This document shows positions 22,531 to 26,429 of a DNA stretch of 64,000 nucleotides, piece by piece (position 1 is the stretch's first letter; each line of letters begins with the position of its first letter). The notes under the pieces were generated by a model that saw only the letters and a list, made by a program, of their open reading frames with translations, had not been told where the DNA came from and ran no database searches. This stretch comes from Thermoflexus hugenholtzii JAD2 (lineage in GTDB: Bacteria; Chloroflexota; UBA11872; UBA12225), in the NCBI GenBank assembly GCA_945865725.1, contig CAMBEO010000003.1, positions 5,111 through 69,110 of the forward strand, given 5' to 3'. The translations under genes were made by a program, and so were the position numbers.

Positions 22531-23196
22531 TTGCCCGCCCGTGAGGACGCCTCCCCTGTGACCACCGCGCGCACTTCCACGACCAGGAGCCGCGCCACAT
22601 CCGCCCGGCTCGGCCGAGAGGCATCCCTCGCCTCCCAGCGAGACGCGCGCCTGCGCAGTCGTCGCCGGCGCCTGGTCACCTACTGGGCGTTCGGTGGAGC
22701 CACCCTCATCGCTATCGTGGGGTTGGTCGTGTGGGTCTCGACTCCCCAATCCACCGCCATCGGCGAATTGCAGGACTTCCCGATCCAAGGACGCACGCAC
22801 ATCCAGCGAGGGCAGAACCACCCCGCCTACAACAGCGTTCCTCCTACCTCCGGATGGCATTACGCCGACCAGGTCGCGACCGCAGGCGTCCATGTCGATC
22901 CCATCCCGAACGAAGTGCAAGCGCACAATCTCGAGCATGGCGAGGTGATGGTTCAGTACGATTGCCCGACGGGATGCCCGGAAATGGTGTCGGCTCTGGA
23001 ACGAATTGTCCGCACGTATCCCCGGAAGGTCGTCCTGGCGCCTTACCCGGGAATAGGTCGGCCCATCGCCCTGACGAGCTGGGGACGCTTGAAATACCTT
23101 GACCGTCCCGACGAGGCGGCAATTCGCTCGTTCGTGGCAGCCTTCAAGGACAAGGGTCCCGAGGTCTTCCCCGACGAACCGATGGCCACGCCGTGA
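22531..23196 (+). CDS. DUF3105-like membrane-anchored protein
   Basis: TM helix followed by a conserved HNLEHGEVMVQYDCPTGCPE region. Alternative (TTG) start, so start is uncertain. Confidence 0.45.
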   Translation: MPAREDASPVTTARTSTTRSRATSARLGREASLASQRDARLRSRRRRLVTYWAFGGATLIAIVGLVVWVSTPQSTAIGELQDFPIQGRTHIQRGQNHPAYNSVPPTSGWHYADQVATAGVHVDPIPNEVQAHNLEHGEVMVQYDCPTGCPEMVSALERIVRTYPRKVVLAPYPGIGRPIALTSWGRLKYLDRPDEAAIRSFVAAFKDKGPEVFPDEPMATP

Positions 23197-23732
23197 GCAG
23201 TGACATCCCATCGGCTAGCCTGTCAAGCGCCGACCACGACCCTGGCACCTACCGGGTCGCACCGCCCGACCCGGTTTTGGTCGGGGGATCCACCAGGCCA
23301 CTCGTACGTCGGCATCGCGACCCGCGCACGACCTTTCTCGTGGTCGTCGGGTTGATCACGGTCCTGTACGTCGCCACCTTCGTGCGCGGCCTCTGGTGGC
23401 AGTGGAAGGGCATCATCCTGGCGCAGCCAGCCACCGCCCCGGTCGTGGCTGGTGCGCCGCGGAGCGCGGCGGCACGCCCGGTCGGCGCCGCGCCCGGCAA
23501 CGCCGCCGCACGGAAGCCCCTCACCCGCACCGACGCGCCGGCGCCCCGCAACGTCACTGACGAGCGCGGTGTGACGTACGACGCGAACGGCGTCGCGGTC
23601 ATGGGAATCGATGCCGACCCGAGCGGCGTATACAACGTGCCCCCGGGGCGCCAGCTCCGCATCGGCGGTCCCGAAGGCGCGCTCTTCGATGTCGGCGACG
23701 GCGGGCGCCTGGTGCCCGCCGCGAAGCGCTAG
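23193..23732 (+). CDS. Hypothetical membrane protein
   Basis: GTGA overlap with the upstream stop; a single TM helix. Confidence 0.35.
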   Translation: MSSDIPSASLSSADHDPGTYRVAPPDPVLVGGSTRPLVRRHRDPRTTFLVVVGLITVLYVATFVRGLWWQWKGIILAQPATAPVVAGAPRSAAARPVGAAPGNAAARKPLTRTDAPAPRNVTDERGVTYDANGVAVMGIDADPSGVYNVPPGRQLRIGGPEGALFDVGDGGRLVPAAKR

Positions 23733-23879: not shown

Positions 23880-26429
23880 ATGGGCGCCCTCGAGAAAATC
23901 GCCGCCATCATCGGGCGACGGTGGCGATCGCTTCTGGTCCTCCTCGTCCTCGGCGCGGCCTTCTTCCTGTGGTTCGTGCCGAACTACGACACTGCGATGC
24001 CATACGTCCTGTACGGGGCGTACCTCCTCTTCCAGCTGTTGTTCGCCGTCCTGTTCATGATCCTCCAGTTCGCCGCCCTGTTCTGGTTCCTCGGGCGCGG
24101 GCGAACCTACTGGGTCATGCCGGGCGAGACCGGCATCGGCTTCAAGGACTACCGGGGCCAGAACGACGTCCTCGAGACCGCCGAACGATGGGTCACCCTC
24201 CTTCGCGGCGTGAAGGAGTTCAAGCGCATGGGCGGGGAGGTCAGTCGGGGACTCCTCCTCGTCGGGCCTCCCGGTACCGGCAAGTCGTACCTCGCGCAAG
24301 CGATCGCGACCGAGGCGGGCGTGCCGTTCGGCTACACCTCCGCCTCTTCGTTCCGTGCCATGTTCATGGGCATGGACGTCCTCATCGTCTGGCGCCTCTA
24401 CCGCAAGGCCCGCAACCTCGCGAGGAAGCACGGCGCCTGCATCCTGTTCATCGACGAGATCGACTCCATCGGCGCCGCCCGGACCGCCGGGATGATGGGC
24501 GGCGGCGGGATGATGGGCGGTCTCATGGGTGGGGGTGGTGCCCTCAACCAGCTGCTCATGGAGATGGACCCGCCCCGCCTCAGCGAGGGGTGGAAGGAAC
24601 GCCTCCTGCGGCGCCTCGGCATCCTCCGCCGTCCCGTCATCCGGCCCAACGTCGTGACCATGGGCGCGACGAACATCGTCGAGACCCTCGACCAGGCCCT
24701 CCTCCGCGCCGGGCGCTTTGATCGCCAGCTCACCATCGACCCGCCCGACTCCGAGGGGCGCAAGGACATCATCGAGTACTACTTGTCGAAGGTCCGCCAC
24801 GAGGACATGCCGATCGACCGCATGGCCGGCGACACCATCGGCTACACGCCCGTCACGATCAAGTACATCGTCAACGAGGCGACCGTCGTGGCCCACTTCA
24901 ACGGGCGCGACGCCATCACCTACTTCGACTTCACCGAGGCGCGCGAGGCCCACGAATGGGGCATCAAGCAGCCGATCCGGGGCATGAAGCTCGAGGAGAA
25001 GCGTCGCCTCGCCTACCATGAGGCGGGCCATGCCTTCGCCATGGCGATCCTCCAGCGAGACCAGTTCCGCGTGTCAAAGGTCACGATCCAGCGCCACGGG
25101 CGCGCCCTCGGCTTCGCGGCGCCAAAGCCCGTCGAGGAGCGCTACACGCAGACGAATGACGAGGTCCTCTCCGAGATTCAGGTTTGCCTCGCAAGTCGCG
25201 CCGCCGAGGAGCTCTTCCTCGACACGCAACTCACCGGCGTGACCAGCGACCTGCAACACGCCACGCGCCTCGCCTTGGCCTACCTGGGCATCTATGGCAT
25301 GGGGGGCAGCTTCTACTCGCACCTCGTTGGCGGCAACATGATGGGGAGCGTCCCCGAGAAGCGCCGCGCCGAGCAGCTCCTCGACGAGCAGTACACCCGC
25401 GTCAAGACCCTGCTGTCCGTCCACTCCGACACCGTCCATGCCATCGCCCAAGCCTTGGTCCAGCGAGGCGAGCTGATCGGCGACGACATCCAGCGGATCA
25501 TCGACGAGAAGGAGCGGGAACGGCAGAGCCAGGACTTGACGCTCCGCGAGGACACCCGGCGCATTGCCTACCACGAGGCGGGCCACGCGGTCGCCCAGGC
25601 AATCCTCCTTCGCCGGCAGGACATCGGACGCGTCTCCATCGTCAGCACCACCGAACCGCAGACGTTCAACGAGCTTCGCCCCCTCACCAGTCAGCAGTCG
25701 TACTCACGCGACGAAGTCCTCGCCGAGATCCAGGTCCGCCTCGCCAGTCGGGCCGCCGAGGAGCTCTTCCTGGACCTCGTCCTTGATAACTCCGCGACCG
25801 ATATCAAGCGGGCACGCGACCTTGCGCGCTACGTCATTACCTACATGAACCCGTCGGACGTCCTGTTCGTCTACGAGCCGGAAACGCCCCAGGAGGAGGA
25901 GCGCCAAGGTGGGGACGGCAGTCCGGACACCTCGACGACCACGACTGGCACCGCAGACCCTGCCGCAGCGTCCGTCACCCCTCGCACTCGACGGCCGGCC
26001 ACGGGTGGTGACGCGCGTGTCCGCCGCGAGGTCGACTCCCTTCTGCGTGCGCAATACGACACCGTCAAGGCCCTGTTGCGCGACTGCGAGGTGGAGGTGC
26101 ATCGCCTCGCACGTGCCCTCGCCGAGAAGGGCGAGCTATCAGGCACGGACGTTCGCCGCATCCTCAACGGCAAGTTGGGGGGACGCTCCTCGGCGGCCGT
26201 GATCGCGACCGCCCAGGCGATCGCGAAAGGCCTCGGCGACGATCCTGTCTCGGCGGCGATTGGCCAGGTGACGCACGGCCCCGCTGCCGGCGTTCCAGCG
26301 GTCCACGCGTCGTCCGCGGTGACGGATGGCCCAACCTCGCCGATCACCGGCGGGACGTCGGCGCTCCCAGTCCCTGCCCATCCGGACGCCGTCACGCCGC
26401 CACTGCCGATGGACGGCACGACCACCTAG
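23880..26429 (+). CDS. FtsH-like AAA+ zinc metalloprotease with tandem duplicated M41 peptidase domains
   Basis: Two N-terminal TM helices with no periplasmic domain. Walker A GPPGTGKS and Walker B ILFIDEID. Gly/Met-rich insertion (MMGGGGMMGGLMGGGG). Two HEAGH motifs (AYHEAGHAFAMAIL and AYHEAGHAVAQAIL), each with a downstream Asp (SDLQHAT and ATDIKRA). Confidence 0.85.
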   Translation: MGALEKIAAIIGRRWRSLLVLLVLGAAFFLWFVPNYDTAMPYVLYGAYLLFQLLFAVLFMILQFAALFWFLGRGRTYWVMPGETGIGFKDYRGQNDVLETAERWVTLLRGVKEFKRMGGEVSRGLLLVGPPGTGKSYLAQAIATEAGVPFGYTSASSFRAMFMGMDVLIVWRLYRKARNLARKHGACILFIDEIDSIGAARTAGMMGGGGMMGGLMGGGGALNQLLMEMDPPRLSEGWKERLLRRLGILRRPVIRPNVVTMGATNIVETLDQALLRAGRFDRQLTIDPPDSEGRKDIIEYYLSKVRHEDMPIDRMAGDTIGYTPVTIKYIVNEATVVAHFNGRDAITYFDFTEAREAHEWGIKQPIRGMKLEEKRRLAYHEAGHAFAMAILQRDQFRVSKVTIQRHGRALGFAAPKPVEERYTQTNDEVLSEIQVCLASRAAEELFLDTQLTGVTSDLQHATRLALAYLGIYGMGGSFYSHLVGGNMMGSVPEKRRAEQLLDEQYTRVKTLLSVHSDTVHAIAQALVQRGELIGDDIQRIIDEKERERQSQDLTLREDTRRIAYHEAGHAVAQAILLRRQDIGRVSIVSTTEPQTFNELRPLTSQQSYSRDEVLAEIQVRLASRAAEELFLDLVLDNSATDIKRARDLARYVITYMNPSDVLFVYEPETPQEEERQGGDGSPDTSTTTTGTADPAAASVTPRTRRPATGGDARVRREVDSLLRAQYDTVKALLRDCEVEVHRLARALAEKGELSGTDVRRILNGKLGGRSSAAVIATAQAIAKGLGDDPVSAAIGQVTHGPAAGVPAVHASSAVTDGPTSPITGGTSALPVPAHPDAVTPPLPMDGTTT

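Follow-up and report, generated by a model that had tools for sequence, protein, structure and literature searches.

A gene for an FtsH-like protein with two M41 domains

The window analysed here, a 64,000-nucleotide stretch of contig CAMBEO010000003.1, carries on its plus strand a single open reading frame (ORF) at 23880-26429 that begins with ATG and encodes 849 amino acids, as a preliminary description of this DNA had stated. Met1 is nearly invariant in an alignment of 34 homologues. The ORF is a real gene that looks expressed, and its product is a non-canonical membrane AAA+ zinc protease of the FtsH type from a Thermoflexus-like Chloroflexota bacterium of hot springs. The gene, its parts and its upstream neighbours are:

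22531..23732, plus strand: candidate operon partners, one ORF for a DUF3105 membrane protein (22531-23196) and one for a single-pass membrane protein of 179 aa (23193-23732)
23880..26429, plus strand: complete gene for the FtsH-like protein (TM hairpin, AAA+, M41, M41, disordered tail), from the ORF list and Pfam/NCBIfam scans
23922..24092, plus strand: N-terminal membrane hairpin, aa 15-71, a pair of TM helices with a very short connecting loop, from hydropathy and AlphaFold
24129..24965, plus strand: AAA+ ATPase module, aa 84-362, from Pfam and alignment to Thermus FtsH 2DHR
24486..24539, plus strand: Gly/Met-rich loop AGMMGGGGMMGGLMGGGG at the pore-2 loop position, aa 203-220, from alignment and composition
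24570..24650, plus strand: second subfamily-specific AAA segment PPRLSEGWKERLLRRLGILRRPVIRPN, aa 231-257, from alignment to Thermus FtsH and the model
24966..25520, plus strand: first M41 protease domain (d1), aa 363-547, with H380, E381, H384, E443 and D457, from Pfam and the 2DHR alignment
25017..25031, plus strand: HEAGH zinc motif of d1, aa 380-384, from a motif search
25521..26174, plus strand: second M41 protease domain (d2), aa 548-765, with H565, E566, H569, E627 and D641, from Pfam, AlphaFold and Foldseek
25572..25586, plus strand: HEAGH zinc motif of d2, aa 565-569, from a motif search
25857..26006, plus strand: hypervariable low-complexity loop in d2, aa 660-709, predicted disordered (pLDDT < 50), with abundant Thr, Pro, Glu, Gly and Ala
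26175..26426, plus strand: C-terminal tail, aa 766-849, predicted disordered (pLDDT < 50), with abundant Ala, Gly, Pro and Thr

In the NCBIfam scan the protein scores 378.2 bits with TIGR01241 (the FtsH equivalog), below the curated cut-off of 600, and 206.9 bits with PRK10733, below the cut-off of 1008. Because of the sub-cut-off TIGR01241 score, and because a canonical M41 gene is reported for Thermoflexus hugenholtzii JAD2, where a published supplement also holds another FtsH-like gene (PMC8129789), the earlier label of FtsH paralogue is reasonable. The orthologue of the window gene was not located in the table of that supplement, whose gene order does not match the window, and tblastn found no further FtsH-like genes within the window. 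A promoter and terminator scan found no promoter-like site; the only terminator-like hairpins fall within the 5' end of the gene but on the other strand, and were about as numerous as expected by chance.

Membrane hairpin and AAA+ module

The two closely spaced N-terminal TM helices with no periplasmic domain that had been read from the sequence are borne out by hydropathy, structure prediction and domain scans. Hydrophobic segments at approximately aa 14-37 and 39-74 have only a few residues between them, Kyte-Doolittle peaks are centred at aa 23-28 and 48-65, AlphaFold predicts helices at 15-32 and 36-71, and the Pfam scan of the protein gave no FtsH_ext (PF06480) match even at E up to 1.

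Pfam places the AAA domain at aa 125-286 (93.4 bits). Walker A (GPPGTGKS), the pore-1 loop (MFMGM), Walker B (ILFIDEID) and the second region of homology (RAGRFDRQ) can all be aligned to Thermus FtsH (2DHR) and are invariant in the 34-homologue alignment. The Gly/Met-rich run, with 11 Gly and 5 Met, falls between Walker B and 'LNQLL', opposite the 'GSGVGGGNDEREQT' loop of Thermus FtsH, where it is aligned with 'GSGVGGGND......EREQT'. Equivalent Gly/Met or Gly/Phe/Leu loops occur in relatives from Chloroflexota and Firmicutes that have a single M41 domain, and the alignments indicate that a whole FtsH-like subfamily, whether with one M41 domain or two, has this run as its pore-2 loop. The Gly/Met insertion singled out in the preliminary description is thus present in the AAA module, but it is common to the subfamily and not peculiar to this protein.

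The segment at aa 231-257 had been overlooked. It comprises 27 basic, partly helical residues (helix 238-245 in the AlphaFold model), is about 20 residues longer than the corresponding stretch of Thermus FtsH, and has W238, R241, L243, R244, G247, P252, R255 and P256 invariant or nearly so in the homologue alignment. The window protein belongs to this uncharacterised FtsH-like subfamily, which is marked by the TM hairpin, the Gly/Met pore-2 loop and the extra basic AAA segment.

Two consecutive M41 domains

Peptidase_M41 (PF01434) matches the whole protein in two stretches, and each half passes the cut-off of 29.9 bits when scanned alone: aa 363-547 (d1) at 106.9 bits, over profile positions 3-191 of 191, and aa 548-849 (the d2 half) at 77.6 bits. 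The HEAGH motifs begin at aa 380 and 565, and in alignments to solved FtsH structures D457 and D641 fall in the column of the Asp that is the third zinc ligand. Neither motif shows the loss of zinc-binding or catalytic HEXXH residues that marks FtsHi-like pseudoproteases. The claim of two consecutive M41 domains, each with an intact HEAGH and a downstream Asp, therefore stands. The catalytic residues of d1 are present in 45/45 family sequences, and its zinc motif is invariant as HE[AT]GH across all relatives.

Whether the second region is an M41 fold at all had been named as a point to check, and structure prediction bears the assignment out. AlphaFold models d2 as an M41 fold (pLDDT 78, pTM 0.70). 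Its top PDB matches in Foldseek are the protease domains of FtsH, AFG3L2, YME1 and FtsHi (8xku and 8xks among them), with no other folds, and its TM score relative to the isolated protease domain 2di4 is 0.72-0.74. The d2 profile also matches Thermotoga FtsH at E 2e-34 with the HEAGH and Asp columns aligned.

Two parts of d2 depart from the canonical domain. The 'PRGxALG' strand motif by the active site is absent, aa 585-606 being predicted with low confidence, and the disordered loop of about 50 residues at aa 660-709 (mean identity 0.20 across homologues, relaxed dN/dS) replaces an ordered canonical M41 segment between the Asp helix and the C-terminal helices. Because of the lost motif and the disordered loop, substrate binding at site 2 may be impaired, zinc ligands notwithstanding. 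In the monomer model the d1 helix 534-551 runs almost straight into the d2 HEXXH helix 554-576; the relative orientation of the two domains in that model is unreliable (pTM 0.38, no defined packing). The C-terminal tail is not conserved (mean identity 0.11, dN/dS 0.18-1.06), and relatives are 30-50 aa shorter. The tail had been described as Thr/Pro-rich, which is not strictly so; it is rich in Ala and Gly as well.

Relatives, origin of d2 and gene neighbourhood

The AAA-M41-M41 architecture is conserved in approximately 44 relatives, all from Chloroflexota, with those of Thermoflexus the closest, an outcome in favour of the preliminary description, which had proposed a check of the distribution. 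When 1.84 billion representative proteins are clustered at 50% identity, these relatives make up a single full-length cluster, and the tandem clade comprises P0001-P0044 together with loci L001, L002, L003, L005 and L017. The census comes from the search that found these relatives; a d2-specific search of a 5.8-billion-protein database, in which shared words select the candidates, returned mostly short fragments and added few d2 pieces. No description of tandem M41 domains or of the FtsH-like subfamily was found in the literature searched, which covered part of the journals, and the arrangement is apparently limited to a narrow bacterial group and never described before.

Single-M41 relatives are about 600 aa long, 51-61% identical over aa 1-545, and end after the first M41 domain. 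They occur in Chloroflexus, Roseiflexaceae, Thermomicrobium, Nitrolancea, Paenibacillus, Brevibacillus, Neobacillus, Sporolactobacillus and others, and are annotated only as 'AAA family ATPase'. The d2 domain shares 40-50% identity with the M41 domains of its own subfamily and 29-42% with those of canonical FtsH, and a neighbour-joining tree places it basally in the subfamily, with the canonical outgroups outside it. This greater similarity to the subfamily's own domains and the tree placement indicate that d2 arose by internal duplication of an M41 domain of about 185 residues within the subfamily. The d2 of P0044 is 47-50% identical to d1 domains and 34-42% to other d2 domains; the tree and identity matrix appear compatible with either one duplication or two to three.

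The DUF3105 gene (Pfam match of 85 bits) and the 179-aa ORF overlap by 4 nt, upstream of the FtsH-like gene. DUF3105 lies directly upstream in 5/5 tandem genome loci and 0/75 single-M41 loci, and the same gene order is seen beside P0018 and P0020 and not beside P0037. We tentatively regard the two upstream ORFs as operon partners or members of the same system. The other neighbours are housekeeping genes (recF, rsmG, lepB and 2-oxoacid dehydrogenase). An anti-phage or mobile-element AAA protease was considered and rejected on this housekeeping context and on the match to the defence ATPase model IteA, which at 65.9 bits is far below its cut-off of 510.

Selection and the fate of the second zinc site

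Purifying selection on d2 is as strong as on d1. In three comparisons dN/dS was 0.03, 0.09 and 0.14 for the d2 core, 0.02, 0.08 and 0.13 for d1, and 0.03, 0.07 and 0.18 for the AAA module. Site 2 is intact in 22/43 family sequences that cover the d2 motif and lost in 21/43, in which H565 is replaced by D/N/E/G/S/R and H569 by K/R/Q and the motif reads DEAGK, NEAGK and so on. Despite these histidine losses, E566 and E627 are invariant and D641 is kept in 42/43, and the d2/d1 divergence ratio is 1.24 in the intact clade and 1.17 in the lost clade. Because d2 is no less constrained in the relatives that have lost its zinc-binding histidines, we infer that the conserved, selected function of d2 is mainly architectural or structural. 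Where it is intact, the H-E-H-D set is kept across lineages whose d2 domains are only 35-50% identical, and on this retention site 2 of the window protein is probably functional. The picture of two proteases in one chain thus fits the window protein, but half of its tandem relatives have lost the second-site zinc histidines.

Proposed architecture and alternatives

The reading that we favour, and consider somewhat more probable than improbable as a whole, is a hexamer in which an AAA+ ring feeds a d1 protease ring and d2 forms a tier that is mainly architectural, with a site 2 that probably works in this protein. Like FtsH, the window protein presumably forms a membrane-bound hexamer, in which the single AAA+ ring would thread substrates into the first M41 ring. 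Starting directly after the last helix of d1, d2 would most likely form an extra tier under that ring and so extend or cap the degradation chamber. The FtsH hexamer consists of two rings, the protease ring having six-fold symmetry (PMC8943139), and by analogy a stacked second protease ring is plausible. Since all zinc ligands and the catalytic Glu are retained, the second tier here is probably catalytic and would provide six further working zinc-peptidase sites that cut the translocated chain again. A bolder form of this proposal, possible though somewhat doubtful, is a three-tier single-chain machine with one AAA+ ring, two coaxial and sequential zinc-protease rings and twelve active sites per hexamer. 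If true, this would make it the first AAA+ protease in which one motor serves two proteolytic chambers in series, and its relatives would be a natural series in which the distal chamber becomes a dead structural cap, with Lys or Arg replacing zinc ligands.

That d2 is a pseudoprotease in the window protein too, perhaps binding zinc but serving only as scaffold, cap or docking platform while d1 does all proteolysis, seems to us rather unlikely. It would fit the half of the family that lacks the site-2 histidines with no change in d2 evolution rate, the degenerate and poorly predicted active-site strand with its long inserted disordered loop, and the precedent of chloroplast FtsHi, in which M41 rings persist without catalysis (PMC11266112). 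The window protein, however, has H565, E566, H569 and D641 all in place, and retention of the zinc set by 22 sequences from very divergent d2 lineages would be difficult to account for unless the metal site is under selection. We find it quite improbable that d2 is instead a peripheral module outside any stacked ring, used for substrate or adaptor recognition, for interaction with DUF3105 or the small protein, or for tail-to-tail pairing of hexamers. The DUF3105 gene upstream of most tandem genes and of none of the single-M41 genes would suit such a role, as would the undefined d1-d2 packing of the monomer model, but P0037 is a tandem gene that has no adjoining DUF3105, and common descent of the loci may be all that lies behind the co-occurrence. 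The conserved domain of DUF3105 is, moreover, probably outside the cytoplasmic membrane while d2 is cytoplasmic, and the very short helical d1-d2 junction favours a fixed over a free-swinging arrangement.

The tandem arrangement could also have been an artefact, whether an assembly duplication (a concern of the preliminary description), a chimeric contig or a read-through fusion of two genes, and we regard this as extremely improbable. The d1 and d2 proteins are only about 35% identical (E 1e-27), and at the DNA level their similarity is confined to short stretches of 66 nt (88%) and 62 nt (79%). With copies this divergent, no long DNA repeat and the exact protein on 3 contigs, from NCBI, Logan and ENA, we reject assembly duplication. 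The reading frame is continuous through both M41 copies, the orthologue cluster has 33 members on many contigs, and the same architecture is found in approximately 44 protein clusters of independent assemblies and in 5 species-representative genomes; the strong purifying selection on d2 also argues against an artefact.

To our knowledge, characterised FtsH-type and Lon-type proteases all pair one ATPase ring with one protease ring per chain. The AAA-M41-M41 arrangement raises the questions of what a second tier gains (product length, processivity, gating or stability), by what route a translocated chain would reach the distal tier, and why d2 catalysis is dispensable while the domain is kept. 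The tandem family offers a ready comparison of active and dead second sites, and the window protein should suit cryo-EM and biochemistry because its close relative Thermoflexus hugenholtzii is a cultured thermophile. Beyond the tandem clade, the analysis draws attention to a wider FtsH-like subfamily, so far uncharacterised, whose members in Chloroflexota and spore-forming Firmicutes have no periplasmic domain and carry a Gly/Met pore-2 loop.

Comparison with known systems

Like canonical bacterial FtsH (MEROPS M41; TIGR01241; 2CE7, 2DHR, 7TDO), the window protein has a pair of N-terminal TM helices and a single AAA+ module of the classic clade, which contains Walker A and B, Arg fingers and a pore-1 loop of the aromatic-hydrophobic-Gly type and is followed by an M41 zinc-protease domain with HEXXH and Asp. 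It differs in lacking the periplasmic or extracellular domain of about 70 residues that canonical FtsH has between its TM helices, in its longer Gly/Met pore-2 loop and about 20 extra basic AAA residues, and in the second, complete M41 domain and the long disordered tail that come after d1. Single-M41 members of the subfamily have the same TM hairpin, Gly/Met-type pore-2 loop and AAA insertion but stop after d1, with DUF3105 nearby at none of their 75 loci. Two M41 domains per polypeptide are also found in head-to-tail fusions of two whole FtsH units, such as P0127 (1428 aa) and P0134 (1021 aa). These are arranged AAA-M41-AAA-M41 and are unrelated to the tandem clade, whereas the window protein has one AAA module for two M41 domains.

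The chloroplast Ycf2-FtsHi motor (8XKU, 8XKS, 8XQW) keeps zinc-motif-less M41 domains as structural parts of an AAA+ machine (PMC11266112). The 21 tandem relatives that have lost the second zinc site parallel this, although in FtsHi the inactive M41 is the sole one of a separate subunit, whereas in the tandem clade the extra M41 lies in the same chain behind an intact d1, and in the window protein it is not degenerate. Type II AAA+ proteins (p97/Cdc48, NSF, ClpB) have a ring-forming ATPase domain duplicated in one chain to give stacked rings, and after such internal duplication of a ring domain one copy often degenerates catalytically. Deg7, an ATP-independent HtrA protease in which one protease domain is active and the other degenerate, follows the same principle but has a fold unrelated to that of the window protein. 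What is doubled in type II AAA+ proteins is the ATPase domain; in the window protein it is the protease domain.

An FtsH-like protein with two M41 protease domains

The FtsH-like gene encodes a protein in which a single AAA module is followed by two M41 protease domains.

23880-26429, + strand: FtsH-like gene, single ORF, 849 aa
aa 125-286: AAA domain (Pfam, 93.4 bits)
24570-24650, + strand (aa 231-257): basic segment PPRLSEGWKERLLRRLGILRRPVIRPN in the AAA module, from alignment with 2DHR

Pfam matched Peptidase_M41 to two stretches of the protein. When the halves were scanned separately, residues 363-547 (the first domain, d1) scored 106.9 bits with the entire profile covered and residues 548-849, which contain the second domain (d2, aa 548-765), scored 77.6 bits, against a gathering cut-off of 29.9. 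The HEAGH motif occurs at aa 380 and again at aa 565; when the protein is aligned to solved FtsH structures, D457 and D641 match the position of the third zinc ligand, and E443 and E627 map to the conserved 'RAAEE' helix. At the N-terminus, hydropathy identifies two hydrophobic segments at about aa 14-37 and 39-74 with few residues between them, AlphaFold predicts helices at 15-32 and 36-71, and Pfam finds no FtsH_ext match in the protein, bearing out the transmembrane hairpin without a periplasmic domain that had been proposed. The tail (aa 766-849) had been called Thr/Pro-rich, and it is rich in both residues, but Ala and Gly are abundant too; it is predicted to be disordered and is not conserved across homologues.

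To examine the fold of d2, we modelled aa 548-775 alone with a 22-sequence alignment, obtaining a pLDDT of 78.4 and a pTM of 0.70, with confident helices and weaker regions at aa 585-606 and in the loop at aa 660-709. Foldseek searches of the PDB with this model returned FtsH-family protease domains only, led by Thermotoga 2ce7 (E 4e-9) and including Aquifex, Thermus, E. coli, AFG3L2, YME1 and FtsHi complexes, with a TM score of 0.72-0.74 relative to the isolated protease domain 2di4. The d2 profile matched Thermotoga FtsH across the full protease domain (E 2e-34). The model, the exclusively FtsH matches and the profile score uphold the second M41 domain and speak against d2 being something other than an M41 fold. 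It departs from canonical M41 in two places: the 'PRGxALG' strand beside the active site is replaced by STTEPQTFNELRP, and between the Asp helix and the C-terminal helices about 50 residues of hypervariable, low-complexity loop stand where canonical M41 has an ordered segment.

Insertions in the AAA module

We compared the AAA module residue by residue with Thermus thermophilus FtsH (2DHR). The module retains intact Walker A, pore-1 loop, Walker B, sensor-1 and Arg-finger motifs, with FMG in the pore-1 loop where canonical FtsH has FVG. The preliminary description had the module interrupted by a Gly/Met run. The run, AGMMGGGGMMGGLMGGGG, is present at aa 203-220 between Walker B and 'LNQLL', but it lies opposite GSGVGGGNDEREQT of canonical FtsH, the pore-2 loop of FtsH structures, and is common to the whole subfamily of FtsH-like proteins to which this one belongs. 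The loop is six residues longer than its canonical counterpart and consists of Gly and Met. Equivalent Gly/Met or Gly/Phe/Leu loops occur in relatives with a single M41 domain from Chloroflexus, Thermomicrobium, Nitrolancea, Ktedonobacterales, Paenibacillus, Brevibacillus, Neobacillus, Sporolactobacillus and Limnochordia. The basic segment PPRLSEGWKERLLRRLGILRRPVIRPN, which the preliminary description did not mention, exceeds its Thermus counterpart by about 20 residues, lies between the helix following the pore-2 loop and the sensor-1 strand, has several invariant residues and is likewise common to the subfamily. Both insertions are traits of the whole subfamily. Speculatively, the Gly/Met loop may form a flexible hydrophobic grip suited to membrane-protein segments.

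In two single-M41 subfamily members from the search of representatives, P0129 (839 aa) and P0125 (1434 aa), the AAA module contains inteins (Intein_splicing in both, LAGLIDADG in P0125), which explains their long Walker A-to-HEXXH spacing.

Duplication of the protease domain and loss of the second zinc site

The domains d1 and d2 share 35% protein identity (E 1e-27), and their DNA similarity is confined to 66 nt at 88% and 62 nt at 79%, at offsets of 552 and 555 nt. At this level of divergence the copies are not a misassembled repeat but the product of an old, in-frame duplication spanning about 185 codons. The same 849-aa protein, residue for residue, appears on three contigs (NCBI, Logan, ENA), and the closest cluster of orthologues comprises 33 members spread over many contigs.

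The helix 'DEVLxEIQVxLASRAAEELFLD' (25158-25223 in d1, 25710-25775 in d2) is the same in both domains at 20 of 22 residues and has 88% DNA identity, against about 35% protein identity domain-wide; this could reflect extreme constraint in both copies or local gene conversion. Separately, P0096 (488 aa) and P0304 (269 aa) share one 104,563-bp ENA contig and apparently represent a divided tandem gene, one piece holding the AAA module plus d1 and the other d2, which could be a frameshift, a pseudogene or a sequencing error.

The d2 domains are 40-50% identical to subfamily M41 domains (d1 or single forms) and only 29-42% identical to those of canonical FtsH, and a neighbour-joining tree has them branching basally within the subfamily, with the canonical outgroups outside them, which together indicate an origin by internal duplication. 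The duplication may have occurred once, with later loss in single forms of the P0045 type, or two to three times; the d2 of the tandem cluster P0044 is nearer to d1 domains than to other d2 domains.

Against orthologues L017, L001 and L002, respectively, dN/dS was 0.03, 0.09 and 0.14 for the d2 core, 0.02, 0.08 and 0.13 for d1, and 0.03, 0.07 and 0.18 for the transmembrane plus AAA region, values that are qualitative since dS is partly saturated. By this measure constraint on the d2 core is indistinguishable from that on d1 and on the transmembrane plus AAA region; dN/dS is relaxed in the d2 loop and in the protein's tail (0.18-1.06).

The zinc site of d1 (H380, E381, H384, E443, D457) is present in 45/45 family sequences. 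For the d2 site, excluding two sequences that end before it, HExxH is kept in 22 and lost in 21, with H565 replaced by D, N, E, G, S or R and H569 by K, R or Q, while E566 and E627 are invariant and D641 is present in 42/43. In the d2 tree the sequences that lost the motif essentially group as a single clade, with P0029 (REAGH) as a separate case. The median d2/d1 divergence ratio is 1.24 in the intact clade and 1.17 in the lost clade, equality that indicates selection on d2 largely independent of zinc catalysis and points to a structural role. The Asp/Asn and Lys/Arg replacements beside the retained Glu and Asp would form a salt-bridge network in place of the metal. Even lineages that share only 35-50% identity with one another in d2 keep the full H-E-H-D set, which argues that the metal site is functional where kept, including in the 849-aa protein.

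Distribution and genomic context

The closest genomes are Thermoflexus (L001 and L017, 81-82% identity), and the G+C of the stretch that holds the 849-aa gene is 63-73% across 2-kb windows, mostly 65-72%, near the 67.3% of T. hugenholtzii (PMC8129789). The long form occurs in about 44 clusters at 90% identity (P0001-P0044) in a database of 5.8 billion proteins, and all the named ones are Chloroflexota. Among the 80 best loci in species-representative genomes 5 are tandem (L001, L002, L003, L005, L017) and 75 have single-M41 forms. An exhaustive HMM search with the d2 profile over 1.84 billion representatives clustered at 50% identity gave more than 230 bits for P0016 and four fragments only, followed by generic M41 scores; P0016 also stands for the divergent tandem forms, each of which exceeds 50% identity to it. 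The remaining multi-M41 proteins in the top 150 are fusions of two complete FtsH units, each with its own AAA module, so that among these 150, ranked by similarity to d2, AAA-M41-M41 appears limited to a narrow clade.

Three unrelated proteins with two M41 domains are FtsH units fused head to tail: P0127 (1428 aa) and P0134 (1021 aa) have two AAA modules, the first unit of P0134 lacking HEXXH, and P0126 (670 aa) has an M41 fragment and then one complete FtsH unit. They may be real fusions or gene-calling artefacts. The subfamily is otherwise from Chloroflexota and Firmicutes, the exceptions, in bins labelled as other phyla, being L012 (a MAG labelled Proteobacteria), L076 (a MAG labelled Singulisphaera) and NDF55064.1 (labelled Pseudomonadota), among them a partial copy in the 849-aa protein's own 90% cluster; these are likely binning or labelling errors, or possibly gene transfer.

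The neighbours of the tandem gene are housekeeping genes, listed here in order.

3-hydroxyisobutyrate-dehydrogenase-like gene, ahead of recF
recF, before the DUF3105 gene
22531-23196: DUF3105 membrane protein gene, directly on the upstream side
23193-23732: 179-aa single-pass membrane ORF, 4-nt overlap with the DUF3105 gene, no Pfam match
rsmG, lepB and 2-oxoacid dehydrogenase E2/E1β, after the tandem gene, all on the opposite strand

All five tandem genome loci, the divergent L003 and L005 among them, have a DUF3105 gene directly upstream, and none of the 75 single-M41 loci contains one. Such a gene also adjoins the tandem clusters P0018 and P0020 and is not beside P0037. The association could be a functional link or inherited synteny.

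Relation to known FtsH proteins and a proposed mechanism

T. hugenholtzii JAD2 has a canonical M41 gene (MEROPS E 1.2e-77) and two I87 (HflK/C-type) inhibitors (PMC8129789). It also has an FtsH-like gene, 2143740492, whose neighbours are rodA and minCDE and whose MEROPS M41 match is weak (E 5e-16; H394, H398, D473) (PMC8129789 supplement). That makes the tandem gene a further paralogue and not the main FtsH of the organism, and Thermoflexus may have three FtsH-type genes. The 849-aa protein qualifies as FtsH at the level of its domains and is predicted to work like FtsH, but it falls short of canonical FtsH in both the periplasmic domain and the equivalog score (378 bits against a 600-bit cut-off). 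NCBIfam has no model specific to the subfamily, whose public names are only 'AAA family ATPase', 'cell division protease FtsH' and 'ATP-dependent Zn protease'. The protein is best filed as a tandem-M41 variant within an uncharacterised FtsH-like subfamily.

FtsH assembles as a hexamer in which an AAA ring sits on a six-fold protease ring, and the ATPase pulls substrates through its pore and on to the protease sites (PMC8943139). Here a single AAA module that looks competent is followed by a first protease domain and a second M41 fold, both complete, and in the AlphaFold model helix 534-551 of d1 passes with hardly a break into helix 554-576 of d2. With the C-terminal helices of M41 probably on the distal face, close to the six-fold axis, d2 would come to lie underneath d1. 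We infer a stacked double-chamber mechanism in which six d2 domains would form a third tier of the hexamer, extending or capping the chamber. This tier would supply six further zinc sites in the lineage of the 849-aa protein and be a dead structural ring in the clade that lost the histidines.

No description of tandem M41 domains was found in the literature searched, and for family M41 the pseudo-metallopeptidase review has FtsHi only (PMC11266112). The AAA-M41-M41 architecture rests on solid evidence, and specialists in AAA+ proteases would find it surprising. Type II AAA+ proteins have stacked rings that arose from internal domain duplication, and they are one of the two closest conceptual parallels to tandem M41. 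The other is the FtsHi pseudoproteases, in which M41 rings are retained without catalysis (PMC11266112).
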